From NCBI RefSeq assembly GCF_030268225.1, contig NZ_BSQG01000011.1:19751-83750 (forward strand): 64,000 nucleotides of DNA. The letters are read 5' to 3'. The position numbers were made by a program, and so were the translations under genes. This document shows, piece by piece, positions 1-63,894 of this stretch. The notes below the pieces were generated by a model, which saw only the letters and a list, made by a program, of their open reading frames with translations, was not told the origin of the DNA and made no database searches. Positions within the stretch are counted from its first letter, which is position 1, and each line of letters begins with the position of its first letter. Source of the DNA: Nocardiopsis ansamitocini (GTDB lineage Bacteria > Actinomycetota > Actinomycetes > Streptosporangiales > Streptosporangiaceae).

Positions 1-147
1 CATCACGCCCTGGAAGAGCATGGAGACCGCTCGTCCGACGTCGTGGAGAAAGCGGAAGATATCGCGCTGGAGGACGACCTTGACGACCCTGAGGTCGTGG
101 GAGAACCCGTAGTCCGGTGCCTGGACGGCCGTGTCCGACGATGTCAC
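1..147 (-). CDS. hypothetical protein, N-terminal fragment (gene continues past the window start); GTG start overlaps the lanKC stop codon (GTGA)
   Basis: Minus-strand frame MTSSDTAVQAPDYGFSHDLRVVKVVLQRDIFRFLHDVGRAVSMLFQGVM... has very high GC3, unlike the overlapping plus-strand ORF 43..318. The GTG sits directly on the TGA of the upstream synthetase gene. No family recognised. Confidence 0.3.
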   Translation of the reverse strand, partial: MTSSDTAVQAPDYGFSHDLRVVKVVLQRDIFRFLHDVGRAVSMLFQGVM

Positions 148-3124: not shown

Positions 3125-4045
3125 TCAGAGCCGGTCGAGCAGCTCGGCCTTCTTGGCGGCGAACTCGTCGTCGGTGAGGAAACCGTCGGCGTGCAGGCGG
3201 CCCAGTCGCTCGATCTGCGCGTAGACAGCGTCCTCCTCGTCACCGTCACCGGTTCCGGGCTCCCCCGCGGGAAGGGCCTCCGGCCCGGCCCCCAACTGGC
3301 GGGCCGGTTGGGCCGTTCCGGCCCAGATGTAGGCGGTGATGGTGGCCGCCATCAGCAGTGTCGCCGCTCCCTCCCGCCCTTCCTCGCACAACAGGCAGGA
3401 GAAGTCGTGCTTGGGCTTGACCGCTTCCTTGGCCGCGAAACCGTGCTCGACCACGCGCAGGTACCCGTATTCCCACCCGTCGGAGGGCACCCATTCGGCT
3501 GCGGCCACGCGGGAGAGGGGGAACTCGCGCCGTTGTTCCTTGCGCTTGCGCGTCGTGGCCGCGGAACCGGACCACACCAGCCGCACCGACGCACCGTCGA
3601 AGGTGGCGGTTCCCTCCTCCGTCGTGATGTGCAGCGGCAGCTTGGGAACGAGGCGGGTGGCCACCTGAGCGGGGTCCGTAGCCGTTGCGTCGTCGAGGGC
3701 GTTCTCGATCGCGAAGGTGATCTGGTCGGAGTAGTACTCGGCCAACAGCTCGGTCTTCGCCGGACCGGTCAGCCGGAAGGGCTGGGCCTTCTCGTTCAGC
3801 ATCGCGCCCGCAGTGGCGTAGGGGTCGGCGTGCTCCCGCAGGTGCAGCTGAAGGACCCACCCCTTCTTCTTCCCGGCTCCTGGCCGAAAATCCACCGAGG
3901 CGATGGCCGCGATCGGCACCTCGCACTGGCCGAGCTTCTTCAACAGGGGGTCTTTGAACCACCCGGTGGCGTAGCGGATGGCGATCGACTCACTGCCAAA
4001 ACGCCAGACGGCCTGTTTCCCGCGCAATTCATCCATCGGCGCCAT
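3125..4045 (-). CDS. DUF4429-like protein with C-terminal SHOCT domain
   Basis: C-terminus GFLTDDEFAAKKAELLDRL resembles the short SHOCT oligomerisation motif; the N-terminal two-thirds resemble DUF4429. High GC3; ATG at 4045. Confidence 0.55.
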   Translation of the reverse strand: MAPMDELRGKQAVWRFGSESIAIRYATGWFKDPLLKKLGQCEVPIAAIASVDFRPGAGKKKGWVLQLHLREHADPYATAGAMLNEKAQPFRLTGPAKTELLAEYYSDQITFAIENALDDATATDPAQVATRLVPKLPLHITTEEGTATFDGASVRLVWSGSAATTRKRKEQRREFPLSRVAAAEWVPSDGWEYGYLRVVEHGFAAKEAVKPKHDFSCLLCEEGREGAATLLMAATITAYIWAGTAQPARQLGAGPEALPAGEPGTGDGDEEDAVYAQIERLGRLHADGFLTDDEFAAKKAELLDRL

Positions 4046-4165: not shown

Positions 4166-4999
4166 TCATCTGGCCCATTCCGGCCGTCGGGCCACGAGGA
4201 AGGTCTCCGACGGGGCGACCGGGCGAAGCAGGAGAAGGACGAAACCGAGCGTGCCGCGGAGGTTGTGCAGCCAGCTCTCCCGATAGTCCGATGTGTAGCG
4301 CAGGATCCGGGTCCGGGCGGCCGGGTCCTGCTCGTTGAAGCCCCAGTCGACGAGACCTCGGACGCACGCCCAGAGGAAGTTGTCCCACTCCTCGGCCGTG
4401 CTCACCTGGGCGTGGACGGGCATCCATCCCGCCGCGGTGACCTGTTCGAGCACACCGTTTAGGTCGGTGTGGGGGTCCTCGTCGAGGCTGAGCGCGGCGA
4501 GGGTCTGCTCGTTCGGGGGGCGGTGCCAGAAGCTCTCCCCCAACAGGACGTAGCCGTTGGGGAGCACCTGGGCGCGGAGGTGCTTCAAGGTGCCGTCCAG
4601 GCCGCCGAAGACCTCGGTGAGTCCCACACACATCACGAGGTCGCTGGGGTCCTGGGGCGTGAACGCGCGGGCGTTGACGGCGTGTCCGCTGAACCGGTCG
4701 GCCAGACCGCGGCGTTCGGCCTCCCGGGTGGCCCGGGCGATGTGCGCCGCGGAGAGGTCCACCCCGACGCACGAGGAGCCGGGGTGCAACTCCAGTGCGC
4801 GCAGCGACCAGGCGCCCAGACCGCAACCGATGTCGAGCACGGTCGCGTCGGACTTGAGCTCGACCATGCGCAGCAGTCGGTCGATGGTGGCCCCGGACAC
4901 GGGGCCCACCACCGGATGGTCGTCACCCAACCGGTTCCAGATGGCCTCATTGTCGATCCCGGTGTAGTCCATGGCCTGCGTCCTCTCGGGGGAACCCAC
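4166..4999 (-). CDS. class I SAM-dependent methyltransferase
   Basis: Motif I VLDIGCGLGAWS. GTG start directly abuts the TGA of the upstream gene (TGAGTG), with AGGAG 7 nt upstream. Alternative ATG at 4972. Confidence 0.8.
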   Translation of the reverse strand: MGSPERTQAMDYTGIDNEAIWNRLGDDHPVVGPVSGATIDRLLRMVELKSDATVLDIGCGLGAWSLRALELHPGSSCVGVDLSAAHIARATREAERRGLADRFSGHAVNARAFTPQDPSDLVMCVGLTEVFGGLDGTLKHLRAQVLPNGYVLLGESFWHRPPNEQTLAALSLDEDPHTDLNGVLEQVTAAGWMPVHAQVSTAEEWDNFLWACVRGLVDWGFNEQDPAARTRILRYTSDYRESWLHNLRGTLGFVLLLLRPVAPSETFLVARRPEWAR

Positions 5000-6511
5000 T
5001 CATCGCTCCTGGTCTTCGTCGGTGCCGTCGACCCATCGCCGCGCGGCTGCGGCGATCGCGTCGCGGGCCGCGCGCACCTCTGCCGCCAGGGGCCGGTCCC
5101 GGTCCAGCGGTGGGCTGATCTCGGCGAGCTCGGCCCAGAGGCTGTCGGGCTCGGCCTCCTGGCCGACCAGTGCGGCGTACTGGGCGAGGCCCACCCCGAG
5201 CGATCCGATGACGAGCCAGGCGTGCCCGAGCGCCTCGGCCACGGCGTTGGCACCGTTGAGCGCCATCGGGACATGGTCCTGGTTTCCGTTGTTGCAGGGC
5301 AGGGAGGTCAGAGAGGCCGGCACGACCAACTGCCTGATCCGGGAGACGAAAGACGTCGCGCTCACCTGCACACCGGCGAGTCCGCTGCCGGCTCCGGGCC
5401 GTGGGGTGAGCATCGGGGGCAGCCCACCGTTGGTCTCGGAAGCGCACAGCAGCGCGAGCTGCCGGTCGGCCAGGTAGGCCACCTGTTGGAGGCACAGGCC
5501 CAACTGGTCGGAGCACAGACCGACCGGCATGGCATGGAAGTTGCCGCCGTGCAGGACCTCTCCCTCGTAACAGACGGGGTTGTCCGTGGTCCCGCCGGCC
5601 TCACGGACAAGGATCTCCTCTTCCGCGTCCAACCGGTCCTGCACCGCTCCGAGGACCTGGGGGGCGCACCGGAGGCTGTAGGGCTCCTGAAGCGGACGCC
5701 CCGGGCCCCGCTCGGCCCCTTCGGGAAACTGCGACCTGATCCACCGGGCCACCCGTATCTGACCGTGTTGGCCTCTGACCTCGCCGATGCCGTGGTGGTA
5801 GGCCTGCGGATCCGCTCCCAGCAGGCGCGCCATCCTGCCGGTCAGGAGGGCGGACGCGCGCACCAGACGGGAGAGTTGCCGGTGGTTGTCGATGGTGAGT
5901 GCCAGCGAGACCCCGGTGCCGTTGACGAAGGCCAGCGCCTCGCGTGCAGACCACTCGACCGGCTCGGCGCCGACCGCTTCCAGTGCGCGCTCGGCGGGCA
6001 GGCAGACCCAGGCGCCCGCGTCGTCGCGCACCCACGCCTCCCCGCTTCCGCTGAAGGCGAGCGCGGCACTGGCCAGGGGCTGGAGGTCGCCGCTCGCGCT
6101 GACCGTCCCGTCCCGGGGGATCGCCGGGGTGAAACCGCTGTTCCACAACTTGGCGAGAAGCGACCAGAACTCCGGGGAGACCGCCGAGTGGCCCAGTCGC
6201 ATCCCGGACAGGCGCAACCACACCACCAGGCGACACACGTCGGGGGGCAGGGGACTGCCCTGGGCGGTCGCCAGATGGGCGATGAGCCCGCTGCCCTGTT
6301 CCTGGGCCGATTCGGCTGCGGGGAAGGCGACCAGCGGCCCGAATCCGTTCGTGACCCCGTAGACCGGCTTCCCGTCCGCGAGCGTCTTGGCCAGGGTGGT
6401 CATCCCGCCGCGCATCCGAGCGGCGTCCTCCTCTTCGCACTCCGCGAGTTCAGCGTCCCAATCCGCAGCTCGCGCGATCGCGGCGAGATTTCGCCGGGTA
6501 CCCGTCGTCAC
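5000..6511 (-). CDS. MIO-dependent aromatic amino acid ammonia-lyase/aminomutase (HAL/PAL/TAL family)
   Basis: MIO-forming tripeptide in TVSASGDLQPLAS. Also GFGPLV, NGTGVS, QEPYSLRCAPQ, HGGNFHAMPVG and NQDHVPMALNGAN. Start assigned to GTG at 6511, overlapping the stop of the upstream adenylating-enzyme gene (GTGA). Confidence 0.85.
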   Translation of the reverse strand: MTTGTRRNLAAIARAADWDAELAECEEEDAARMRGGMTTLAKTLADGKPVYGVTNGFGPLVAFPAAESAQEQGSGLIAHLATAQGSPLPPDVCRLVVWLRLSGMRLGHSAVSPEFWSLLAKLWNSGFTPAIPRDGTVSASGDLQPLASAALAFSGSGEAWVRDDAGAWVCLPAERALEAVGAEPVEWSAREALAFVNGTGVSLALTIDNHRQLSRLVRASALLTGRMARLLGADPQAYHHGIGEVRGQHGQIRVARWIRSQFPEGAERGPGRPLQEPYSLRCAPQVLGAVQDRLDAEEEILVREAGGTTDNPVCYEGEVLHGGNFHAMPVGLCSDQLGLCLQQVAYLADRQLALLCASETNGGLPPMLTPRPGAGSGLAGVQVSATSFVSRIRQLVVPASLTSLPCNNGNQDHVPMALNGANAVAEALGHAWLVIGSLGVGLAQYAALVGQEAEPDSLWAELAEISPPLDRDRPLAAEVRAARDAIAAAARRWVDGTDEDQER

Positions 6512-7877: not shown

Positions 7878-8870
7878 TCAAGCCGAGGTGGAACCCACCC
7901 GCTTCTTCAGCGGTTCCCACCAGCTCCGGTTGTCCACGTACCAGCGCACGGTGTCGGCCAACCCCTGCCGGAAGGGCACCTGGTCCCGGTAGCCCAACTC
8001 GGTGCGGATCCTCGTGTGGTCGAGGGAGTAGCGGTGGTCGTGTCCCTTGCGGTCCTCGACGAAGCGCACCATCGACCAGTCGTGCCCCAGCTCCTTTAGG
8101 ACCAGTGCCGTCACCTGCTCGTTGGTCATCTCCACGGCGCTGCCGATGTTGTAGATCCGCCCCGGGTCACCGTGTTGCGCGACCAGGGCGATACCGGCGC
8201 AGTGGTCGTCGACGTGCACCCACTCGCGCACGTTGCTGCCGTCCCCGTAAAGGGGGACCGTCTCGCCGTCCAGGAGGTTCGTGACGAAGAGCGGGATCAG
8301 CTTCTCGGGGAACTGGTAGGGCCCGTAGTTGTTGCAGCACCGGGTGATGCACACCGCGAGACCGTGCGTCTTGTAGAAGGCACGGGCGATGAGATCGGCC
8401 GCGCCCTTCGTTGCCGCGTAGGGGGAGTTGGGCTCCAGCAGGCCCTGCTCGTCCCAGGACTCCGACGTGATCGTCCCGTAGACCTCGTCGGTCGACACGA
8501 GGACGAATTTGTCGACCTTCGCCCTCAACGCGCTGTCGAGAAGGGCGAACGTCCCGTTCACATTGCTGCGCAGGAACTCCGAACCGTCAGCGATGGAGCG
8601 GTCGACATGCGTCTCGGCCGCGAAGTGGACGACGAGCGAGACACCGGCCATCACCTCGTCGAGCAGAGCGGTGTCACAGATGTCCCCGGAGACGAATCTG
8701 AGCCGGGGGTCCTCCATTACGCGTTCCAGGCTCCCCAATGTTCCGGCGTAGGTCAGCTTGTCCAGGACCACGACCTCGGAGGCGTCCACCCCCGGATACG
8801 CGCCCGCGAGAACGCGTCGGACGAAATTCGATCCGACAAACCCAGCGCCGCCAGTGACCAGCATTCTCAT
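7878..8870 (-). CDS. rmlB: dTDP-glucose 4,6-dehydratase
   Basis: MRMLVTGGAGFVGSNFV Rossmann N-terminus, YAATKGAAD (YxxxK), LVSTDEVYG. Typical RmlB length of 330 aa. Confidence 0.9.
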   Translation of the reverse strand: MRMLVTGGAGFVGSNFVRRVLAGAYPGVDASEVVVLDKLTYAGTLGSLERVMEDPRLRFVSGDICDTALLDEVMAGVSLVVHFAAETHVDRSIADGSEFLRSNVNGTFALLDSALRAKVDKFVLVSTDEVYGTITSESWDEQGLLEPNSPYAATKGAADLIARAFYKTHGLAVCITRCCNNYGPYQFPEKLIPLFVTNLLDGETVPLYGDGSNVREWVHVDDHCAGIALVAQHGDPGRIYNIGSAVEMTNEQVTALVLKELGHDWSMVRFVEDRKGHDHRYSLDHTRIRTELGYRDQVPFRQGLADTVRWYVDNRSWWEPLKKRVGSTSA

Positions 8871-8882
8871 GTGCTCTCACCT

Positions 8883-9764
8883 CTACCGTGTGCCATTCGA
8901 GCGCCGAGCCTTTTCCATCACGTATCGACCGTACGGCGAGTCCTTCATCTCTTCTCCCAACCTGTGACACGCCTCCGCGTCGATGAATCCCATACGCAAC
9001 GCGATCTCTTCGAGGCAGGCGATGCGCTCGCCTTGTCCCTTCAGCACCGAGTGGACATAGCAGGCGGACTCGAAGAGGGACTCCTCCGTTCCCGCGTCGA
9101 ACCACGCGACACTGTCTTCCAGCGTCACGAAACGCGCCCTTTCCTGGGCAAGGTAAGCCCGGTTGACATCGGTGATCTCAAGTTCGCCGCGCGCCGACGG
9201 ACGAACCTCCTTGGCCACCTCGACCGCATCGGCGCCGTAGAAATAGAGCCCCGTCACCGCGTAGTCGGAATCGGGGCGTTCCGGTTTTTCCTCGATCGAG
9301 ATCAACCTCCCGGACCGGTCGAACCCCCCGACCCCGTAGCGGCACGGATCAAAGACCTTGTGTCCGAAGAGGACGCATCCGTCCACCGTGCGTGCGGCCT
9401 CCTGGACGGCTTCCTCGAATCCGGGGCCGTGGAACAGGTTGTCGCCCAGTACCAGCGCACTGGGTCGGCCGTCGATATGACGTTCGCCGATGAGCAGAGC
9501 CTCCGCGATTCCTCGCGGCTCTTTTTGCTCCCGGTAACCGATATCGAGACCGAGCCGCTTTCCGTCTCCGAACACCCGTTGCAGAGGGGAAATCGATTCG
9601 GGGGCGGAGATCACCAGAATTTCACGGATTCCAGCGAGCATGAGAACCGCGATCGGATAGTAGATCATCGGCTTGTCGTAGATGGGAAACAACTGCTTAG
9701 ACGCCGCACTCGTACTCGGCCGGAGACGGCTCCCGTTTCCTCCCGCCAGAACAATACCCTTCAC
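8883..9764 (-). CDS. rmlA: glucose-1-phosphate thymidylyltransferase
   Basis: VKGIVLAGGNGSRLRP at the GTG start, with AGGAG 5 nt upstream. Also EKPERPDSDYAVTGLYFY. The longer N-terminal extension in the ORF track is rejected. Confidence 0.9.
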   Translation of the reverse strand: MKGIVLAGGNGSRLRPSTSAASKQLFPIYDKPMIYYPIAVLMLAGIREILVISAPESISPLQRVFGDGKRLGLDIGYREQKEPRGIAEALLIGERHIDGRPSALVLGDNLFHGPGFEEAVQEAARTVDGCVLFGHKVFDPCRYGVGGFDRSGRLISIEEKPERPDSDYAVTGLYFYGADAVEVAKEVRPSARGELEITDVNRAYLAQERARFVTLEDSVAWFDAGTEESLFESACYVHSVLKGQGERIACLEEIALRMGFIDAEACHRLGEEMKDSPYGRYVMEKARRSNGTR

Positions 9765-10037
9765 AGAAACTCCTGGTCGGACAGAGCGGTGGGTTTCACC
9801 GAACCGTACACGGGGTCTCTCGGGTTTTGTCCAGACTCGGCACCGTTCCTGCACGATGGTATGTTCACCGAGCCAGGGAGCTATACGCCCCCACCCCTTC
9901 CCGACCCACGCGAAAAACCTGGACCGGCAGCCCGAACTCCCCAAGTTAAAGGCGGCAACAACGCCGACGGCACTCAATGGCCGACCTTTTCATTGCGGAT
10001 GACTTTCTCCGAACGCGTACCAGGAAAAGGAAATACC

Positions 10038-11318
10038 GTGCGCATCCTCATAGCGACATACGCAGACAGGTCCTACTTCTTCAGCATGGTGCCACTGGCA
10101 TGGGCGCTGCGGGCCGCGGGTCACGAGGTGCGAGTGGCCAGCCAGCCGGAGCTGACCGACGCGGCCGCAAGCACCGGCCTGACCGTACTCCCGGTCGGCG
10201 AGGACCACATGTCCAGGAAACTGCTGCACTCGCCGGCGACCCAGCAGTACCAGGACTACCAGGAATCCGCCTTCAACCTGGCCGAGGACCGGCCGGAGGA
10301 GCTGACGTGGGACCGCCTCAAGAAGGCGCAACTCCGGTTCGTCGTCTGGTGGTGGAAGGTGATCAACGAACCGATGCTGAAAGAACTCGTGGCCTTCTGT
10401 CGGGAGTGGCGGCCGGATCTGGTGATCTGGGAGCCGATGACCTTCGCCGGGGCAGTGGCCGCCGAGGCGTGCGGTGCCGCCCACGCCCGCTTCCTGTGGA
10501 GCTACGACCTGGTCGGCCAGAATCGCCGGAACTACCTGGAGGCGATGGCGGAGCAGCCCGCGCACGAGCATGCCGACCCGCTGCGCGAATGGCTCACCTC
10601 CCGCGCCGAGCGCTACGACGTCCCCTTCTCCGAGGACCTGATCAGAGGGCAGTTCTCGATCGGCCCCATTCCCGCCTCCCTCAGGGCCGGGGAGCCCGTG
10701 GTCGAGGAGAAGGTGGGCGTGCGCCATGTCCCCTACGAGGGGGCAACCGTCCTGCCCGGATGGCTGCGCACCCCACTCGAGCAGCGACGCGTGCTCGTGG
10801 ACTGGCGGGCGCTGCGGGCCGGTGACCCCGAACGCAGCGAGGCGGTCCTGCGGGAGGTGCTGGCCGGCGCGATCGGCCTGGACGCGGAAGTGCTGCTGGT
10901 CCTTCCGCCGGCGGACCGGGAGACACTCCCCCCCTTCCCCGACCGTGTGCGCGTCATCGAAGAGGGCATCTCCCACATCGTGCTTCCCACGTGCTCCGCG
11001 GTGGTCCACCCCGGAGGGTTCGACACGTACTGCACGTCCTTGCTGCACGGGGTGCCGCAGGTGATCGTCCCCGAGCCGGACCTGTTCGACGCGACGCCAC
11101 TGGCGAGTGCCCTGGCCGACGCCTCCGCGGGCAGCGTGCTCCCCTGGGCGGGGTGCACCGCCGGGGGCGTCCGGGAGCGGCTGGACGAGGTGCTCGGTTC
11201 CGCGGAGATAGCCGCGGGCGTCCGCCGACTCCAGCAGGAGGTACTGGCCATGCCCACACCGGACCTTCTCGTGGCGGAACTGGAACGCCTCACCGTCAAG
11301 CACCGGAAAGAGGACTGA
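10038..11318 (+). CDS. GT1-family glycosyltransferase (antibiotic/macrolide-type)
   Basis: VRILIATYADRSYFFSMVPLAWALRAAGHEVRVAS N-terminal domain and HPGGFDTYCTSLLHGVPQVIVP C-terminal nucleotide-sugar domain. GTG at 10038 with AAAGGA RBS. The remaining upstream part of ORF 8172..11318 is antisense shadow of rmlA/rmlB. Confidence 0.85.
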   Translation: MRILIATYADRSYFFSMVPLAWALRAAGHEVRVASQPELTDAAASTGLTVLPVGEDHMSRKLLHSPATQQYQDYQESAFNLAEDRPEELTWDRLKKAQLRFVVWWWKVINEPMLKELVAFCREWRPDLVIWEPMTFAGAVAAEACGAAHARFLWSYDLVGQNRRNYLEAMAEQPAHEHADPLREWLTSRAERYDVPFSEDLIRGQFSIGPIPASLRAGEPVVEEKVGVRHVPYEGATVLPGWLRTPLEQRRVLVDWRALRAGDPERSEAVLREVLAGAIGLDAEVLLVLPPADRETLPPFPDRVRVIEEGISHIVLPTCSAVVHPGGFDTYCTSLLHGVPQVIVPEPDLFDATPLASALADASAGSVLPWAGCTAGGVRERLDEVLGSAEIAAGVRRLQQEVLAMPTPDLLVAELERLTVKHRKED

Positions 11319-11351
11319 GCCGACCGCGGGCACCCGCTCCGGGGCGAGACT

Positions 11352-12599
11352 TCAGCCGGTGAGGTCGTGGAGGAGGGGGACGAGGTCGGCGGGGGCGGGC
11401 ATGTCCTGCATTTCCCGGCGCAGGCGGTCGGCCGACCGGGCGAACCCCGGCTCCCCGAGCAGCCGTCGTACCCGCTCCCCCACCGTCTCCCCCGTGGCGT
11501 CGGCGGAGTCCAGCGCGAACCCCGCGCCTGCCCGCTCCACCTCCCGGGCCAACAGCGGAGCGTCGAACAACCGGTCCCTTGGGGCGATGACCTGGGGAAC
11601 CCCGTGGGTGAGCGAGGTGAACACGGTCCCCGGCCCGCCCTGGTCGACCATGGCGTGGCAGGTGGGGGTGAGTGCGTGGAGGGGGGCGTAGTCGACGAGG
11701 CGGGTGTTGGGGGGGATGGGTCCGAGGGTGTGGTGGTGGGCGGTGGGGATGGTGGCGATGATTTCGGCGTCGAGGTCGGCGAGTCCGTTGAGGATGTCGG
11801 TGACGGAGACGGTGTAGCCGCCGAAGCGTTCGGAGGCGCTGGTGCCCAGGGTGAGGCAGATGCGGGGTCGGTGGGGTGGGGTGCGCAGCCAGTGGGGGAC
11901 GACGGCGCGCCCGTTGTAGGGGACGTAGCGCATCGGCAGGTACCTGGCGTCGGACAACGGATCGATCCGCAGCGAGGGAGGAACCTGGTCGATGGTGGCC
12001 TGGCCGTGGACGAGTTCTTCGTCATAATCGAGGCCGTAGCGTGCGGCGAGGGCGGTGAGCCAGGCGGCTAGGGGGTCTTCTTGCTGGTCGGGGGGCTGCT
12101 CGCCCATCCGCCGCAGGTACAACCCCCGCATCCGGGAGAACAGGTCGAGGCTCCAGAGGAAGCGGACGTGGGCGGCCCCGCAGGCCCTGGCCGCGATCGC
12201 CCCCGCGAACGTCGTGGGCTCCCAGATCACCAGGTCCGGACGCCACTGGCGGCAGAACGCCACCAGGTCGCCCAGCATCGGCTCGTTGACCATGCGCCAC
12301 CACCAGGTCACCATCTGGCGATAGCCATCCCTCATGTAATCCCAGGTGAGAACCTCGTCGCGGTCTTCACCCATGTCGAAGACCGCGGTCCGGCCGCCGG
12401 CCGCGCGTTTGACCATCCTCGGAAAAGAGTGGTTGCGGCCCACGGGCACGAAGGGCAGTCCGGCACCGGTGACCACACCTTCGAGTTCGGGCTGACTGGC
12501 CACCCGCACCTCGTGCCCGGCCGCCCGCAACGCCCACGCCACGGGAACCATCCCCAGAAAATGCGTCCGCTCGGCCTGGGCCGCGATCACCACGCGCAC
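11352..12599 (-). CDS. GT1-family glycosyltransferase, paralog of 10038..11318, convergent
   Basis: VRVVIAAQAERTHFLGMVPVAWALRAAGHEVRVAS and HAMVDQGGPGTVFTSLTHGVPQVIAP. GTG 12599 with GAGGTGG RBS. Confidence 0.85.
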   Translation of the reverse strand: MRVVIAAQAERTHFLGMVPVAWALRAAGHEVRVASQPELEGVVTGAGLPFVPVGRNHSFPRMVKRAAGGRTAVFDMGEDRDEVLTWDYMRDGYRQMVTWWWRMVNEPMLGDLVAFCRQWRPDLVIWEPTTFAGAIAARACGAAHVRFLWSLDLFSRMRGLYLRRMGEQPPDQQEDPLAAWLTALAARYGLDYDEELVHGQATIDQVPPSLRIDPLSDARYLPMRYVPYNGRAVVPHWLRTPPHRPRICLTLGTSASERFGGYTVSVTDILNGLADLDAEIIATIPTAHHHTLGPIPPNTRLVDYAPLHALTPTCHAMVDQGGPGTVFTSLTHGVPQVIAPRDRLFDAPLLAREVERAGAGFALDSADATGETVGERVRRLLGEPGFARSADRLRREMQDMPAPADLVPLLHDLTG

Positions 12600-12660: not shown

Positions 12661-13659
12661 TCATCGCGCGACTGCGCGGGCTTCCCGGCTGTGTTCCGCC
12701 TGCGCCTCGGCCGCACGGATCGTGCTGCCGGTGTACTCCAGGAAGACGTCGTCGAGGGACGGCGGCGTCACCCTGATGGAGCGGACCGGGAACTTCAGGT
12801 CGGCGAACAGGCGCGGAACGAATTCCTCGCCCTCGGCGACCGTGAAGACGACGTTCTCCCCCTCGATCTGCGGAGCGATCCCGAACCGGTCCAGCAGCAC
12901 CGCACCGAGGGCGTCGGCCTCGGCCGAGACCATCTCCACCCGGTCCTTGCCGACGCTCTCCTTGAGCGCCCGGGGGCTGTCCAGCACCGCGATGGAGCCT
13001 TCGTCGATGATGGCGATCCGCTGACAGTTCTCGGCTTCCTCCAGGTAATGCGTCGTCATGAAAACGGTCACGCCGTCGCGCTCGTTGATCTCGCGGATGC
13101 CTTCCCAGATGGCCTGTCTGGTCTGCGGGTCGAGACCGATCGTCGGCTCGTCGAGGAAGAGCACGCGGGGCGAGTGGAGCAGGCCGCGGGCGATCTCCAG
13201 GCGTCGGCGCAGGCCACCGGAATAGGTCCCCACGATCCGGTCCTTGTGGCTGCCCAGGCCGACGGTCTCGATCGCGCGGTCGATCCGCTCCTCCACCAGG
13301 TGCTTGGGAACGGCGTAGATCTCGGCGTGGAACCGGAGGTTCTGCCGTCCGGTCAGGTAGCGGTCGAGGGTCTGCTCCTGGAAGACCAGCCCGATGGTGC
13401 GGCGGACCTCCTGGCGTTGGTGCACGACGTCGTAACCCCCGACGGAAGCGGATCCGCCCGTCGGAGTGAGGAGGGTGCACAGCATCTTGATGACCGTGGA
13501 CTTGCCCGCACCGTTGGGGCCGAGAAAACCGAAGATCTCGCCCGGCTCGACCTCGAAGTCGACGCCCTTGACCGCCTCGACCTCGTCGTAGCGCTTGTGG
13601 AGGCCGCGCGCGGACACGGCAGGGGCGGCGTTTCCTCCGGGCACACCCGAGTGGGTCAC
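12661..13659 (-). CDS. ABC transporter ATP-binding protein (DrrA-like); no cognate permease in the window
   Basis: Walker A GPNGAGKST, signature YSGGLRRRLEIA, Walker B VLFLDEPT. GTG start with GAGGAGG RBS. Confidence 0.85.
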   Translation of the reverse strand: MTHSGVPGGNAAPAVSARGLHKRYDEVEAVKGVDFEVEPGEIFGFLGPNGAGKSTVIKMLCTLLTPTGGSASVGGYDVVHQRQEVRRTIGLVFQEQTLDRYLTGRQNLRFHAEIYAVPKHLVEERIDRAIETVGLGSHKDRIVGTYSGGLRRRLEIARGLLHSPRVLFLDEPTIGLDPQTRQAIWEGIREINERDGVTVFMTTHYLEEAENCQRIAIIDEGSIAVLDSPRALKESVGKDRVEMVSAEADALGAVLLDRFGIAPQIEGENVVFTVAEGEEFVPRLFADLKFPVRSIRVTPPSLDDVFLEYTGSTIRAAEAQAEHSREARAVAR

Positions 13660-13734: not shown

Positions 13735-14301
13735 TCAGGACGCGGGCGGACCCGCGGCGAGCGTCCGGACGAACTCAACACCTGCCGTCTCCCACTGCTC
13801 CCGGTAGACGGCGAAGACGTTCGCCGTCCTCAACTGGTCGCCGTCCTTCACGTACTCGGGGAACACGACCTCTTTGACGGCGTCGATCGGGGTGCCGTCC
13901 AGCGCGGCGATCGAGTCGTCGAGCGTCCAGAAGTAGATCTTCCTGATGTTCCACATCGAGAACGCGTAGTTGGCGGTCAGCGCGGTCGCGGCGGTCGCGG
14001 CTCCCGGCCCGCCGCGAGACGGGTCGAGCGCCACGCTGCACTTCACGTAACCGCTGTGCGGGCTGAGTTCGTGCAACGAGGTGTAGCCGACGATCCTCCC
14101 CGACTCCGGGTGCACGATCTCGAACTGGGCGCAGACCTGCTGGTGCGGACCGTTGGGCCAGAGCGACATGGACGTGAAGGCGTCGCGGCTGGGGAGCTTC
14201 TCCAACCCCAGACCGGTCAGTTCCTCGAAAACGGCGCTACCGGTACGGGTCTGAGCGGCGGTGAGCCGGATCCCGAGCGCTTCGGTGTGCGGAATTATCA
14301 C
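13735..14301 (-). CDS. GNAT-family N-acetyltransferase (RimL/acetyltransf_3-like)
   Basis: SRGGPGAATAATALTANYAF matches the acetyl-CoA-binding motif A (R-G-x-G-x-A). GTG start at 14301. The ORF-track 5-prime extension to 14505 overlaps the precursor gene and hairpin and is rejected. Confidence 0.5.
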   Translation of the reverse strand: MIIPHTEALGIRLTAAQTRTGSAVFEELTGLGLEKLPSRDAFTSMSLWPNGPHQQVCAQFEIVHPESGRIVGYTSLHELSPHSGYVKCSVALDPSRGGPGAATAATALTANYAFSMWNIRKIYFWTLDDSIAALDGTPIDAVKEVVFPEYVKDGDQLRTANVFAVYREQWETAGVEFVRTLAAGPPAS

Positions 14302-14348
14302 GTCTGGAAACCCTCGACTACGAAATATTGACTGGCACCAAAGGAGTC

Positions 14349-14378
14349 GGCGTGCGCCGCGCAACCGCGGCGCACGCC
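14349..14378. terminator. perfect 13-bp inverted repeat (GGCGTGCGCCGCG-caac-CGCGGCGCACGCC), 10 nt downstream of the precursor gene stop
   Basis: Read directly. Sits between the precursor peptide and the GNAT gene, like the attenuator hairpins common after RiPP structural genes. Confidence 0.5.
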
Positions 14379-14387
14379 GGTGACCGA

Positions 14388-14489
14388 TCAACCGCAGTTG
14401 AAGTAACTGGCCCCACTGTTGGCCAGAAAAACCTGGTCGGACTCGATTTCCAACTCCTGAAGGGAGAGGATGTCGGAAAGCGTCATCAT
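14388..14489 (-). CDS. lanA1: class III lanthipeptide precursor peptide candidate (33 aa): MMTLSDILSLQELEIESDQVFLANSGASYFNCG
   Basis: Not in the ORF track (below its size cutoff). AAAGAGGTGG Shine-Dalgarno immediately upstream. The leader carries an ILELQ-like motif (DILSLQELEIE). The core carries exactly one Ser-x-x-Ser-x-x-x-Cys motif (SGASYFNC), the labionin/lanthionine-forming pattern of class III substrates. Confidence 0.6.
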   Translation of the reverse strand: MMTLSDILSLQELEIESDQVFLANSGASYFNCG

Positions 14490-15286
14490 GCCACCTCTTT
14501 CTCAATCACTAGGACGCCGCGAAAATCGCCCGCACCCCAGGGTCCGGGCCAATAATCGAAGGCGAAAGGATAAGTTAGGAGCACACCACGCTATCGGAAG
14601 CAGACCCCTTGAGAAACCGAAGAAAGCAGAACTGCCCTTTCAGCTGCCATCAAAAGTAGGCCAATGCGTCCGAACGCGCAAGAATAGGCACCCGAAACGA
14701 AATTGGCCCTCCTCCCGACGGGTCCCGCCGGCGGGACACCCGGTCCGCCCCCGCAGCCGGTGGACCACACGTTGCCCCTGATGTCCCCACGCCTCCCCAC
14801 CAGCGGCTCCGACGCCTGGAGGCCCTTCGTCCCCGCCCGCGCACTACCGCCGGTGACCTGCCCCGAACGGCTCACCCCCGGCACCATCCGACCTTCCCGC
14901 ACACCAGTGGGCCGGCGCCGGTGTCCCCCTATTCTTGGCCACGGCACAGTCGCGTCCGGCACGATCGACGATCGTCGTGCGCACCGCCCATCCGTCCGTC
15001 TCACGTCCCCGGCATGTCCTGCGGAGGCACGCCGGAAAAGAAAGACCGGGCACCGGGGCGGGAGACACCGATCCGCCCCGAGCGCCGGGACGGCGCGGGG
15101 CCGGGAGAGCGACGGGAGACCGCTTCGCGCCGTGGCTCTCGCGGCCAGGAAGCGGGACGACGGCCCCGATGACGCCTGGCCCCGGCGGGCACCTGGTGCC
15201 GGCCTTTGACACTCTTCGGCAGGGGAGACAGCGCACAGACGGTCCTCTTCCGGGCTGACGGACCGATTCGGCAGGGAAGGATATGG

Positions 15287-16609
15287 ATGGTGATGAGCGA
15301 TCAGGCCGCGCGGATCCTCGACGAGGTCCGCGCCTACCACCGGGAGACCCAGCAGGAACAGGAGTTCATTCCGGGTGTCACCGAGATCTGGTCATCCGGC
15401 GCGGTTCTCGACGAAGAGGACCGGGTGTCTCTGGTCGAGGCCGCCCTGGAGATGCGGATCGCAGCGGGCAGGAACTCGCGCAAATTCGAGTCCATCTTCG
15501 CCCGCAGGCTGAACCGGCGCAAAGCCCACCTGACCAACTCCGGTTCGTCGGCGAACCTGCTCTCCCTGTCGGCGCTGACGTCGCACCTGTTGGAAGAACG
15601 CCGGCTCCGGCCCGGCGACGAAGTGATCACGGTCGCCGCGGGGTTCCCCACCACCGTCAACCCGATCCTGCAGAACGGGCTGATCCCGGTATTCGTGGAC
15701 GTCGAGCTGCGGACCTACAACACCACCGCCGATCGGGTGGCTCAAGCGATCGGTCCGCGCACCCGGGCGATCATGATCGCGCACGCGTTGGGCAACCCGT
15801 TCGAGGCCACCGAAATCGCCCAGTTGGCCGAGGACAACGACCTGTTCCTGATCGAGGACAACTGCGACGCCGTGGGCTCCACCTACGACGGGCGACTGAC
15901 GGGTTCCTTCGGCGACCTGTCGACGGTGAGCTTCTATCCGGCCCATCACCTCACCATGGGCGAAGGCGGCTGCGTGCTCACCTCGAACCTGGTTCTGGCC
16001 CGGATCGTGGAGTCGATGCGCGACTGGGGGCGGGACTGCTGGTGCGAACCCGGGGAGAGCAACACCTGCCACAAGCGGTTCGCCTACCAGCTGGGCACGC
16101 TGCCGGCCGGGTACGACCACAAGTACACCTTCTCCCACGTGGGCTACAACCTGAAGGGAACCGATCTTCAGGCGGCTCTCGGTCTGAGCCAACTCACCAA
16201 ACTCGACGGGTTCTCAGCGGCCCGGCGTCGCAACTGGCGCCGGCTGCGCGAGGGTCTCGACGGCCTGCCGTGGCTGCTGCTTCCCGAGGCGACACCGCGC
16301 GGCGATCCGAGCTGGTTCGGTTTCGTTATGACTGTTTCGCCAGCGGCACCGTTCAGCAGAGCGGAACTGGTCGAGTTCCTGGAGAACCGAAAGATCGGTA
16401 CCCGCCTGCTGTTTGCCGGGAATCTGACACGGCACCCCGCGTACATCGACCGCCCCCACCGCGTGGCCGACGACCTGACCAACAGTGACCTGATCACGGA
16501 GCAGACGTTCTGGACCGGTGTCTATCCGGGACTCACCGACGAGATGCTCGACTACGTCATCTCCTCCATCACCGAGTTCGTGAAGACACGCGGGGGCTCT
16601 GGCCATTGA
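15287..16609 (+). CDS. NDP-4-keto-6-deoxyhexose 3-dehydrase (E1/ColD/SpnQ-type, PMP- and [2Fe-2S]-dependent member of the DegT/DnrJ/EryC1 aminotransferase fold)
   Basis: [14 protein letters not shown] has His where aminotransferases have the PLP lysine. Exact C-X57-C-X1-C-X7-C spacing (EDNC ... [13 protein letters not shown]), the E1 iron-sulfur signature. ATG 15287 with GGAAGGA RBS. Confidence 0.85.
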
Positions 16610-16814
16610 ACACGACCGGCACGGCCTGGAAAATGATTCCCCGAGCGGTTAACAGTCGACTTCCCCAGCGGGATAAATACGGCCGGAGAACAACCCGACT
16701 TCCATTTTCGCCGCGTGGCGGGTAATTTCTGTTCACGCTGTCCGGTTAACTCGGGACAGCGACTCGCACACTGGACTATCAGATTTCGAGTAGACCTGAG
16801 GAGGTGATTATTTC

Positions 16815-16934
16815 ATGGCACTCTCGGACGTCCTGCTTCTCCAGGGAATGGAGATCGAGACGGCGGGCAACGATGTCCCCCTTCTCGGAAGTGGTTTGAG
16901 CATTACCGGCTGCACCGTACTGCAGGCCGCATAG
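16815..16934 (+). CDS. lanA2: class III lanthipeptide precursor peptide candidate (39 aa): MALSDVLLLQGMEIETAGNDVPLLGSGLSITGCTVLQAA
   Basis: Not in the ORF track. GAGGAGGTG RBS 10 nt upstream. Leader LSDVLLLQGMEIET parallels the other precursor (LSDILSLQELEIES). Core has a single S-x-x-S-x-x-x-C motif (SGLSITGC). TAG stop. Confidence 0.65.
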   Translation: MALSDVLLLQGMEIETAGNDVPLLGSGLSITGCTVLQAA

Positions 16935-17053
16935 TCCGCGATTATGCGGTCACATTGGGTTCGGACCCGTGATGATCCGTGGCACTGCTTTTCGCGGTTC
17001 GAATAGCAGGGCCGCGGGGAATGAGCGGCGAAGCGGACCCACAGGTGGGGAGC

Positions 17054-17081
17054 GGGGCCTCGCGGACGACCGCGAGGCCCC
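17054..17081. terminator. perfect 12-bp stem hairpin (GGGGCCTCGCGG-acga-CCGCGAGGCCCC) between convergent lanA2 and the hydrolase gene
   Basis: Read directly from the sequence. Confidence 0.55.
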
Positions 17082-17118
17082 GTTGCGTATGCGGGCCCCT
17101 GCCGCGTACGGCTGTGCC

Positions 17119-17979
17119 CTAGAGAAAGGCGCGCAGTGCGGCGTGGAACTCCTCCGGGCGGTCCCGGGGGAGCAGGTGGCCGGCATCCGGGACGCGCAGA
17201 AGATCCGCGCCGGGAATGAGCCGGGCCGTCTCCTCGACGGCGCTCAGCGGAACGACGGAGTCCCGGTCACCGCGCACCACCAGCGTCGGACAGGCGATGT
17301 GCCTGAGCAGTGGGCGCAGGTCGGTGCGCATTCGGCGCCACCCGTACGAGGAGATCTGCCAGTCGTCCATGACCAGTTCTCCGGCCTCGCGTTTGCTCCG
17401 CATCTCCTGCTCGGCAAGTGCGACGATCTCGGCGAAGTCGGGATGGTCCGCGCCTTCGACCAGGGCGGCTCGAAGCGAGACGCGGATCAGGGCAGGACTG
17501 TGGGCGAACAGCGCCGTGGTGAGCCGGAGCAGGCCGGGCGTGCGCAGATAGAGGTACGTCGAGCCCTGTGCCACCCGTCTGCCTTCCATCCCGCCGGGGG
17601 CGACGAGGACCAGGCGTTCGACGCGGTCGGGGTTGCGAGCCGCGAACCCCGCGGCGATACCGCCGCCGAGGGAGAGCCCCACCAGCCTGGCGCTCGCCAG
17701 GCCGCAGTGGTCCATCAGCTCGGCCACCGCCTCTTCCAGACCGGCCTGGCCGGTGGGGCCGTGCCAGGGACGGCTCCCGCCGTGGCGCGGCCAGTCCAGG
17801 GCAAACACCCGGTATCCGTCCTGGAGGGCCGGGATGGCAGCCCCCCAGACGAGCGGGGCGGTGTCGAGCATGGCGCCGTGCAGCAGGATCACAGCGGGGC
17901 CGGTGTTCCCGGCCCGGTAGTAGCGGAGCGGCCCGTGGGCGGTCGTGATGGTGTGTGCGGTCGCGCTTGTCAAAGGCAT
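17119..17979 (-). CDS. alpha/beta-fold hydrolase
   Basis: GLSLGG nucleophile elbow and HG oxyanion motif near the N-terminus (ILLHGAM). Confidence 0.8.
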   Translation of the reverse strand: MPLTSATAHTITTAHGPLRYYRAGNTGPAVILLHGAMLDTAPLVWGAAIPALQDGYRVFALDWPRHGGSRPWHGPTGQAGLEEAVAELMDHCGLASARLVGLSLGGGIAAGFAARNPDRVERLVLVAPGGMEGRRVAQGSTYLYLRTPGLLRLTTALFAHSPALIRVSLRAALVEGADHPDFAEIVALAEQEMRSKREAGELVMDDWQISSYGWRRMRTDLRPLLRHIACPTLVVRGDRDSVVPLSAVEETARLIPGADLLRVPDAGHLLPRDRPEEFHAALRAFL

Positions 17980-17997
17980 GGCTGGGGCCTCCTGGAG

Positions 17998-18684
17998 CTA
18001 CCCGGTGGGTTCGGGGGACTGGGTGCCGTCCCCGGAGAGAGGGGTGGCGATGAAATCGGTGAAAGCGCGCCGGCCCTCGGTCGGATCGGCGTCGGCGTCG
18101 CCCTCGAAGCCTCCGGCCAGCAGTGCGGCAACGGCGTCCAGCGTCGATTCCAACGGAGGCGCCGCCTCGCTGCCGACGGTGGATTCGATGCTGATCAGAC
18201 CGGTGGAGATGATGGCGAGGACGTGCGCGACGGACTGCGCGTCGAGGTCGGTGCGGATCAGTCCGGCTTCCTGCATGCGAACGACGAACGCGACTGCCCA
18301 TCGCTGCCGGGGCGCATAGCGCTCGGGGCCGTACCCGCGCACGAGGTCACCGAGGGTCTGGCTGTCAGCGGTGTAGAGCGCCCGCATGAGGGGGTCCGCA
18401 GCGAGGGCTTCCAGTGCATGCCGGTAGATCGCCGAAAGCCTGCCGCCCTGGGGGTCGGCCGTGACCGCCTCGGTGGTCGTCCGGGCCAACCGGTGGGTCT
18501 GGCGGAGCAGCAATGCCTCAAGGACCGCTTCCTTGCTGGCGAACTCCTGGTAGACGGCGCCCTTGGCGATCCCGGCGGTGCGCGCGATGTCGCTGACGCT
18601 GGTCTTGTCGTAGCCGTAGCGGGCGATCAGTCCCGCTGCCGCATCCAGGATCCGCCCGGCCCGTTCGATCCCTGCCCGCACCAT
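17998..18684 (-). CDS. TetR-family transcriptional regulator
   Basis: N-terminal HTH: YDKTSVSDIARTAGIAKGAVYQEFASKEAV. Confidence 0.85.
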   Translation of the reverse strand: MVRAGIERAGRILDAAAGLIARYGYDKTSVSDIARTAGIAKGAVYQEFASKEAVLEALLLRQTHRLARTTTEAVTADPQGGRLSAIYRHALEALAADPLMRALYTADSQTLGDLVRGYGPERYAPRQRWAVAFVVRMQEAGLIRTDLDAQSVAHVLAIISTGLISIESTVGSEAAPPLESTLDAVAALLAGGFEGDADADPTEGRRAFTDFIATPLSGDGTQSPEPTG

Positions 18685-30249: not shown

Positions 30250-30891
30250 ATGCGTGACTTCTTCACGGCCGCCCTAGGCTTCCCTACTGTCCTGTTCAGC
30301 TTCGCCCTGCTCGTCGTCATCGGCTATTGGGCACTCGTGGTCCTGGGCGGACTCGGCGTGGACTCACTGGATCCCGACACCGAGGGGTTGGCCGACGGCG
30401 GCCTCACCGGTTTCCTGTCGGGCATCGGCCTCGGAGGGGTACCGATCACCGTGACTTTGTCCCTCGTCATCTCCGTGGCGTGGTTCGCCAGCCTGAGTGG
30501 CACCGCGCTCTTGGACGGCATCGACCTCGGCTCCCCGTTGACGCTGGCCGCCGCGGTACTCGTCCTGGTGATCGCGCTGGTCTGCGCTTGGGCGGCCGCC
30601 GCTGCACTGGGGGTACTGTGGCGACGCTTCGTCCCCGACGGACGCGAACCCTCCAAACGCGACTTCATCGGCCGGATGTGCGTGATCCGCACCGGGCGGG
30701 TGGACCGCGCGTTCGGTCAGGCAGAAGTCACCGCCTCCGATGGCTCCTCGGCCCTGATCCAGGTACGCCAGAACGGCGACGACCCCCTGACCGCCGGCTC
30801 GTCCGCGCTCATCTTCGAGTACGACCGCGAGGGCGCGTTCTTCTGGGTCACGGCCTACGACGCCGAACTCGACCCGCACCGCGCGACCTGA
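30250..30891 (+). CDS. NfeD-like/YqiJ-family membrane protein (partner of flotillin)
   Basis: Multi-TM N-terminus plus C-terminal beta-rich soluble domain. Sits immediately upstream of the flotillin gene, as in yqiJK-type operons. Confidence 0.6.
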   Translation: MRDFFTAALGFPTVLFSFALLVVIGYWALVVLGGLGVDSLDPDTEGLADGGLTGFLSGIGLGGVPITVTLSLVISVAWFASLSGTALLDGIDLGSPLTLAAAVLVLVIALVCAWAAAAALGVLWRRFVPDGREPSKRDFIGRMCVIRTGRVDRAFGQAEVTASDGSSALIQVRQNGDDPLTAGSSALIFEYDREGAFFWVTAYDAELDPHRAT

Positions 30892-30976
30892 GCGCCCCGG
30901 CTTGGCGCGGCCCGCCCACCGCACGGCCCGCCCACCGGCCCCGAAATCCCCTGACCACCGATCGCAAGGACCACGG

Positions 30977-33025: not shown

Positions 33026-33032
33026 CGCGCCG

Positions 33033-63719: not shown

Positions 63720-63793
63720 TGGCCAGGGCCGGGGTCGAACCGGCGACCTTCCGCTTTTCAGGCGGACGCTCGTACCGACTGAGCTACCTGGCC
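63720..63793 (-). tRNA. tRNA-Phe (GAA)
   Basis: Reverse complement GGCCAGGTAGCTCAGTCGGTACGAGCGTCCGCCTGAAAAGCGGAAGGTCGCCGGTTCGACCCCGGCCCTGGCCA: 7-bp acceptor stem, anticodon loop CT-GAA-AA, T-loop GGTTCGA. Confidence 0.85.
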
Positions 63794-63819
63794 TCAGGTA
63801 CACCACACGGTGTATCAAG

Positions 63820-63894
63820 CGGTCCTGACGGGATTTGAACCCGCGGCCTCCACCTTGACAGGGTGGCGAGCACTCCAAGCTGCTCCACAGGACC
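63820..63894 (-). tRNA. tRNA-Asp (GTC)
   Basis: Reverse complement GGTCCTGTGGAGCAGCTTGGAGTGCTCGCCACCCTGTCAAGGTGGAGGCCGCGGGTTCAAATCCCGTCAGGACCG: anticodon loop CT-GTC-AA, T-loop GGTTCAA. Confidence 0.85.

Follow-up and report, generated by a model that had tools for sequence, protein, structure and literature searches.

A probable precursor gene for a small class III lanthipeptide in Nocardiopsis ansamitocini

Gene content of the locus

We analyzed a stretch of 64,000 nucleotides from Nocardiopsis ansamitocini, referred to here as the window, and called its genes from GC3 frame analysis, Pfam, NCBIfam, and tblastn against related loci (Table 1). The small ORF under study, hereafter the short-type precursor, heads a gene row that lies almost entirely on the minus strand, with the gene for a LanKC near the end of the row and then a permease gene cut by the window edge. 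The second, long-type precursor continues past its Cys with a TVLQAA tail and contains neither Tyr nor Trp. Its exact sequence was absent from the protein collection that we searched, so it may be unannotated.

Table 1. Features of the locus, with positions in the window and strand.
Feature	Position	Strand	Remarks
ABC-2 membrane permease	1..147	-	Start only (window edge)
Class III lanthionine synthetase LanKC, 857 aa	2717..144	-	RamC_N lyase, kinase, and LanC-like cyclase domains
DUF4429/SHOCT protein	3125..4045	-	DUF4429 protein also in loci L012 and L013
SAM-dependent methyltransferase	4166..4999	-	
MIO-type aromatic amino acid ammonia-lyase or aminomutase	5000..6502	-	ASG motif
Short adenylate-forming ligase, 370 aa	6508..7620	-	Nearest model PYP-type 4-coumarate-CoA ligase, weak match
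NDP-hexose 4,6-dehydratase	7878..8870	-	
NDP-sugar nucleotidyltransferase	8883..9764	-	
Glycosyltransferase 2, EryCIII-like	10038..11318	+	Opposite strand
Glycosyltransferase 1, EryCIII-like	11352..12599	-	TIGR04516, 510 bits
ABC transporter ATPase, DrrA-like	12661..13659	-	
GNAT-fold protein, 188 aa, SpeG/RimJ-like branch	14301..13735	-	GTG start; 86-nt spacer 3' of precursor
Hairpin GGCGUGCGCCGCG-GUUG-CGCGGCGCACGCC	14378..14349	-	Between precursor stop and GNAT start
Short-type precursor gene (probable LanA)	14388..14489	-	Stop codon included; 33 aa, or 32 aa if the second ATG (14486) is the start
Shine-Dalgarno AAAGAGGTGG	14500..14491	-	1 nt 5' of first ATG, 4 nt 5' of second
E1/RfbH-type NDP-4-keto-6-deoxyhexose 3-dehydrase, Pfam DegT	15287..16609	+	Divergent from precursor
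Long-type second precursor, 39 aa, MALSDVLLLQGMEIETAGNDVPLLGSGLSITGCTVLQAA	16815..16934	+	Just downstream of 3-dehydrase gene

Judged from its sequence, the LanKC is bona fide. It passes the NCBI equivalog model NF038151 (961 bits vs a cutoff of 575), has domain matches to RamC_N, Pkinase, and LANC_like, and gives matches of 1e-107 to 1e-70 to LanKC structures that have been solved. Its closest homologues (57-64% identity) are all encoded in syntenic clusters containing peptides of the kind described below. We measured 11.67 kb from the LanKC start to the precursor stop, in line with the 11.6 kb of an earlier note, which had proposed the ORF as a precursor gene from the letters of the window and a list of its ORFs.

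Several genes of the cluster point to sugar biosynthesis and transfer. The 3-dehydrase matched 3bcx at 1e-148 and NF011936 at 670 bits. We had considered an aminotransferase function for this DegT-family gene, which would have made the GNAT-fold protein an amino-sugar N-acetylase, and dropped it on recognizing the gene as an E1/RfbH-type, PMP-dependent 3-dehydrase; a sugar of the 3,6-dideoxyhexose type, not an amino sugar, is what this assignment makes likely. A 447-aa ORF (9990-11333, minus strand) was discarded for the plus-strand glycosyltransferase gene.

In the MIO enzyme, His-Leu stands in place of the Ser-His of P. putida HAL and SgcC4, and His-Leu at this position is what we take to be a tyrosine ammonia-lyase signature, as in RsTAL. 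Its NCBIfam matches all fell under cutoff, and Tyr, His, or Phe as substrate and lyase or mutase as activity are all compatible with them. A tyrosine-derived acyl donor made by this enzyme and the adjacent 370-aa ligase is a lead that these gene assignments suggest.

The GNAT-fold protein is a candidate for acylating the peptide. Its family profile matches SpeG and RimJ/RimL-type N-acetyltransferases (1.8e-11 to 1e-3). An ORF at 13735-14505, which overlaps the precursor, was ruled out as the GNAT gene, with homologues and RefSeq both starting at the GTG at 14301. In the alignment of this family, conservation of the acyl-CoA pyrophosphate loop (R/Q-x-x-G-x-G/A) appears poor within the subtype of the window protein; this protein has RGGPGA there, and some homologues have no Gly. 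The donor may thus be something other than a simple acyl-CoA. An N. dassonvillei locus (L012) encodes four GNAT-like paralogues (8437-8988, 9357-9938, 15198-15755, and 16692-17294) of two subtypes, one whose genes follow precursor genes and one encoded immediately 5' of LanKC; only the former occurs in the window.

The intergenic stretch between the precursor and the divergent 3-dehydrase gene (14506-15286) is unusually long at approximately 780 bp. Scans for sigma-70-like promoters and for Rfam families gave no match there, and the stretch presumably houses divergent promoters and regulatory sites. Genes for an alpha/beta hydrolase and a TetR regulator (17119-18684, minus strand) adjoin the second precursor and may represent the boundary of the cluster; alternatively, the hydrolase may contribute to processing. 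Farther along the window, a gene for an SPFH/Band-7 protein is followed by one for a 1664-aa DUF3686/DUF7902/AAA ATPase (30848-38012, plus strand), a pair unrelated to the lanthipeptide cluster. Rfam assigned no RNA family near the precursor locus; its sole matches in the window were two tRNA genes at 63.7-63.9 kb (63720-63894, minus strand).

Sequence and class of the short-type precursor

Translation of the ORF gives MMTLSDILSLQELEIESDQVFLANSGASYFNCG, exactly the peptide read in the earlier note, and the Shine-Dalgarno sequence reported there was likewise present. The leader covers approximately residues 1-19 and has the motif ILSLQ at residues 7-11. The core, VFLANSGASYFNCG, carries S25, S28, and C32 in the arrangement S25-G-A-S28-Y-F-N-C32, an exact Sx2Sx3C, so that the Ser-x-x-Ser-x-x-x-Cys motif first described for this peptide fits residue by residue. 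Two consecutive ATG codons directly follow AAAGAGGTGG. Because the orthologues of the peptide are 32 aa long and align from its second Met, the true start may be at 14486 rather than at the first ATG. Purine-rich tracts resembling a Shine-Dalgarno sequence (GGAGG, GAGG, or AAGG) also precede most of the homologous peptide ORFs.

The gene is already recognized by standard annotation. RefSeq lists the identical 33-aa protein as WP_285761587.1, under the name 'SapB/AmfS family lantipeptide [Nocardiopsis ansamitocini]'; the GNAT-fold protein and the LanKC are likewise 100% identical to N. ansamitocini proteins, and the records of all three come from a 143-kb contig. The earlier description of the ORF as unannotated has to be withdrawn; it had merely fallen under the cutoff of the ORF track used at that time.

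The RefSeq name raises the alternative of a SapB/AmfS-type morphogen, that is, a surfactant for aerial growth and not a tailored secondary metabolite. SapB and AmfS are themselves class III peptides, made by LanKC enzymes of the RamC/AmfT type (PMC8341899), and in this respect resemble the window peptide with its RamC-type LanKC. They differ from it, however, in model match, ring number, and cluster content. The SapB_AmfS model NF033212 gave no match to the 33-aa peptide and matched its paralogues under cutoff only; the peptide has one ring motif in a core of approximately 14 residues; and the window contains sugar, glycosyltransferase, lyase, ligase, and GNAT genes. We know of no ram or amf operon with genes of these kinds, and we consider a morphogen very unlikely.

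The motif content of the peptide is instead that of a class III lanthipeptide precursor. In LabA2 the ILELQ motif is essential for LabKC, with Ile and Leu being critical and Glu and Gln tolerating substitution (PMC8341899). The ILSLQ of the window peptide keeps all three hydrophobic positions and has Ser at the acidic third position; the leader motif noticed earlier is thus a recognizable variant, and it is conserved across the family. The ring motif of class III peptides, Sx2Sx2-5C, gives labionin, or lanthionine plus dehydroalanine (Dha) (PMC8341899). A LanKC in the cluster, the leader motif, and the ring motif were all found for this precursor. Comparison with known class III precursors, proposed earlier as a check, gave a mixed outcome: the best and only NCBIfam matches of the 33-aa peptide are class III models, but all lie under the curated cutoffs (lanthi_III_b, 16.5 bits with a cutoff of 30; lanthi_III_a, 13.5 bits with a cutoff of 22).

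Among the closest known systems are LabA2 (labyrinthopeptin) and other canonical class III precursors processed by LanKC, which share with the window an ILELQ-type leader, a Ser-x-x-Ser-x-x-x-Cys core, and a three-domain LanKC. Most characterized members, however, have two ring motifs (PMC8341899), whereas the window precursor has one in a very short core. Ser at the third leader position, a LanKC 11.7 kb away, and a heavy set of tailoring genes are further differences from canonical systems, and the first two of these (Ser at the acidic position, LanKC not adjacent) count against class III identity.

Conservation of the peptide family and its genomic setting

Syntenic clusters were reached through homologues of the GNAT-fold protein and of LanKC, and these loci were scanned in six frames for small ORFs. 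The family collected in this way comprises approximately 45 small ORFs in approximately 30 loci, and the same leader motif with a single SxxSxxxC core recurred in at least 20 other genomes, in LanKC clusters syntenic with that of the window. Such clusters occur in Nocardiopsis sp. ATB16-24, N. dassonvillei, N. ganjiahuensis, N. tropica, N. codii, and N. alba and, beyond the genus, in Glycomyces fuscus, in species of Sinosporangium, Streptosporangium, and Nonomuraea, and on several metagenome contigs. Family peptides and LanKC were found together in loci L012-L015, L017, L019, L034-L039, L042, and L048.

The short type forms an orthologous group in at least seven genomes. Its closest orthologues, all 32 aa, include MVLSDVLALQELDTAVDETVLLNSGVSYVGCS (N. 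ganjiahuensis), MVLSDVLSLQEMDTVLDEAVLLNSGLSYVGCS (N. dassonvillei), and MVHTDVLSLQEMDTVLDEAVLLNSGISYFGCS (N. tropica and N. codii), and each lies directly 5' of a GNAT-like gene, an arrangement shared with the window. The leader motif (I/V)LxLQ, the two core Ser residues, and the Cys are unchanged in all aligned members of the family, and Gly26 is kept in all aligned members from Nocardiopsis. Codon comparisons gave pN/pS values of 0.43, 0.42, and 0.24, with synonymous sites near saturation, and therefore indicate selection on the protein sequence. The precursor ORF is also more than a chance occurrence: the combined leader and core pattern matched twice in the window, once in each precursor, against a mean of 0.04 matches per shuffle in 100 dinucleotide shuffles.

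The family co-varies with a modification enzyme. Across the loci retrieved, LanD-type flavoproteins turned up solely in those with a Cys-ending peptide (L014, L034-L039, L042, L048), the combination needed to form avionin, and loci whose peptide extends past the Cys, including the window, are without LanD. For the window, a tblastn search with the L014 flavoprotein gave no match (best E-value 0.44). Three Nonomuraea loci have Cys-ending peptides and no LanD in the fetched stretch, which also excluded the LanKC region. The pairing of LanD with a C-terminal Cys therefore ties the peptide family to the modification enzymes of its clusters.

With two precursors in the window and the long type present in several tandem copies in other clusters, one might regard the short type as a real class III precursor that has become a redundant or decaying paralogue, giving little or no product while the 39-aa peptide is the substrate that matters. 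Yet the short type is an orthologous group maintained at the pN/pS values given above, no other precursor was found within 10 kb of LanKC in N. ganjiahuensis, and the short-type gene has its own Shine-Dalgarno sequence and a conserved hairpin. A redundant paralogue is therefore very improbable in our judgment.

The hairpin behind the precursor gene has a stem of 13 perfect pairs, or 14 including the closing C-G, and starts 9 nt past the stop codon, which agrees with the perfect 13-bp hairpin described earlier. It folds with z-scores of -4.4 and -3.3, a stability reached in 0 of 200 dinucleotide shuffles. Stems of 13-15 bp with different sequences occupy the same place in L012, L013, L015, L017, and L019; the position is kept and the sequence is not, so the structure is what is conserved. 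A scan for sigma-70 promoters and intrinsic terminators around the ORF gave nothing useful, and the hairpin was missed by the terminator scan because there is no U-run 3' of the stem. We suggest that the hairpin is probably a partial terminator or an mRNA-stabilizing element. Most likely it would raise the ratio of precursor to enzyme transcripts and yet permit read-through into the GNAT gene.

The layout, with a short ORF followed closely by a strong hairpin and, 86 nt downstream of the ORF, by the GNAT gene, also resembles an attenuator. The ORF would then be an upstream ORF regulating the GNAT operon, with the hairpin as part of a leader-peptide attenuator, or would belong to a mere 5' UTR with no stable peptide. 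Neither conservation of two Ser residues and a Cys nor a class III leader motif is needed by an attenuator, however, and tandem paralogues occur with no GNAT gene after them (L001 and L004). The C-terminal Cys of the family co-varies with LanD, and selection acts on the protein sequence. We consider regulation of this kind extremely improbable, the least plausible of the alternatives weighed here.

Taken together, the evidence makes it very probable that 14388..14489 is a genuine lanA gene, its product being the precursor from which Nocardiopsis ansamitocini would make a small class III lanthipeptide. The class III assignment of the earlier note is thereby upheld on four grounds: the LanKC passing NF038151, the recurrence of syntenic peptides, selection at the protein level, and the independent RefSeq label. 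The cluster can now be assigned a substrate, with a sub-cutoff ORF as its structural gene, and indeed two substrates when the 16815-16934 peptide is counted beside that of 14388-14489.

Proposed maturation and relation to known products

By analogy with class III biochemistry, LanKC would bind the amphipathic leader helix, phosphorylate Ser25 and Ser28 with NTP, and eliminate phosphate to leave two dehydroalanines. Cys32 would then add to Dha28, and the resulting enolate would either be protonated, giving lanthionine and one Dha, or attack Dha25, giving labionin. We infer one ring, labionin or lanthionine, and the sequence favors neither. Leaders of class III peptides are usually removed by general endo- and aminopeptidases (PMC8341899), and enzymes of these types would be expected to trim the leader here as well.

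The later steps can be proposed from the gene set only. The single-ring core of approximately 9-14 residues would gain a sugar of the 3,6-dideoxyhexose type. The nucleotidyltransferase, the 4,6-dehydratase, and the E1-type 3-dehydrase would supply this sugar, and one or both glycosyltransferases would attach it. The GNAT-fold protein possibly adds a cap to the core, either acetyl or a tyrosine-derived aryl-acyl group, and export would follow. The leaderless product is thus predicted to be probably glycosylated and possibly acylated.

Tyr29 was proposed early on as a potential site of O-glycosylation or acylation. A Tyr follows the second core Ser in seven of the eight short-type orthologues, but the second precursor has no Tyr or Trp, and therefore Tyr is not the acceptor for every peptide of the cluster. 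A role of Tyr29 as acceptor of a sugar or acyl group is thus only weakly supported.

A more specific product is conceivable for the Nocardiopsis subfamily, and we put it forward tentatively, as less likely to be right than wrong. It would be an undescribed hybrid of RiPP and phenylpropanoid glycoside, in which a single-ring class III peptide bears a tyrosine-derived aryl-acyl cap, added to its N-terminus by the GNAT-fold protein, and one or two sugars of the 3,6-dideoxyhexose type. The cap would be made by the MIO lyase or mutase, activated by the coumarate-ligase-like enzyme, and O-methylated; the sugars would possibly sit on Tyr29 or on the cap phenol.

Known systems share parts of this logic. 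A single ring motif was first seen in lipolanthines (PMC8341899). To date, most of the class III precursors known to have just one motif belong to that group. Lipolanthines (microvionin and nocavionin) and goadvionins resemble the window cluster in being hybrid clusters with a short core and a single Sx2Sx2-3C motif, and a GNAT partner is a further shared feature. Acylation by a GNAT has precedent in GdvG, which N-acylates mature goadvionin, and in LpvE, which acylates the N-terminus of a mature RiPP. In contrast to the lipolanthines, however, whose avionin goes with a C-terminal Cys and LanD, the window peptide ends in Cys-Gly (NCG) and no LanD was found in the window. Avionin is not expected from a peptide in which the Cys is not C-terminal. 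Scanning of the window genes revealed neither a PKS nor a KAS III, but did show a GNAT-fold protein and a ligase. With no LanD, no C-terminal Cys, and no PKS found, we do not class the peptide as a lipolanthine.

NAI-112 is a class III peptide with a cluster glycosyltransferase and a deoxyhexose, the sugar being N-linked to Trp (PMC8341899). The window likewise pairs a probable class III peptide with cluster glycosyltransferases, and a deoxyhexose decoration is predicted. Trp is missing from its core, however, and its sugar genes comprise a 3-dehydrase pathway with two glycosyltransferases of the EryCIII type. The closest tailoring logic is that of the lipoavitides (lpv), which combine KAS III or acyl-forming enzymes, a GNAT acylating the N-terminus, an NDP-sugar pathway, and a glycosyltransferase, with Tyr proposed as acceptor (bioRxiv 10.1101/2023.10.25.564083). 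Lipoavitides, however, have AviMeCys ring chemistry and no LanKC, whereas the window cluster is built on a LanKC scaffold, lacks KAS III, and has an MIO lyase or mutase and a short ligase.

No characterized product of the subfamily was found in the literature covered, which leaves out most subscription journals. A preprint on 'lanthiphage' was set aside as precedent, as its subject is a different set of lanthipeptides and a phage GNAT. Precedents exist for the peptide class, for the enzyme, and for every type of tailoring, and the precursor opens no new biological question; the unusual part is the enzymes that add sugar and acyl groups. In this subfamily, which is conserved in many Nocardiopsis genomes, a single-motif peptide occurs together with genes for deoxysugar synthesis, glycosyltransferases, a putative tyrosine lyase with a ligase, and a GNAT. 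Its probable glycosylated, possibly aryl-acylated single-ring product is a reasonable target for genome mining, of moderate interest.

The more distant relatives in Sinosporangium, Streptosporangium, and Nonomuraea (L014, L034-L039, L042, L048) are peptides of 31-33 aa ending in Cys, such as MDLSNILELQEIDVAPEYAELPSSTISSSTC. Like avionin peptides, they combine a C-terminal Cys with LanD, and their genes adjoin those of a GNAT-like protein, the LanD flavoprotein, and LanKC. By their sequences and gene neighborhoods, these Cys-ending relatives look like an avionin-type, possibly glycosylated and acylated, and apparently uncharacterized group. In Streptosporangium they have KAS III, glycosyltransferase, and sugar genes alongside.
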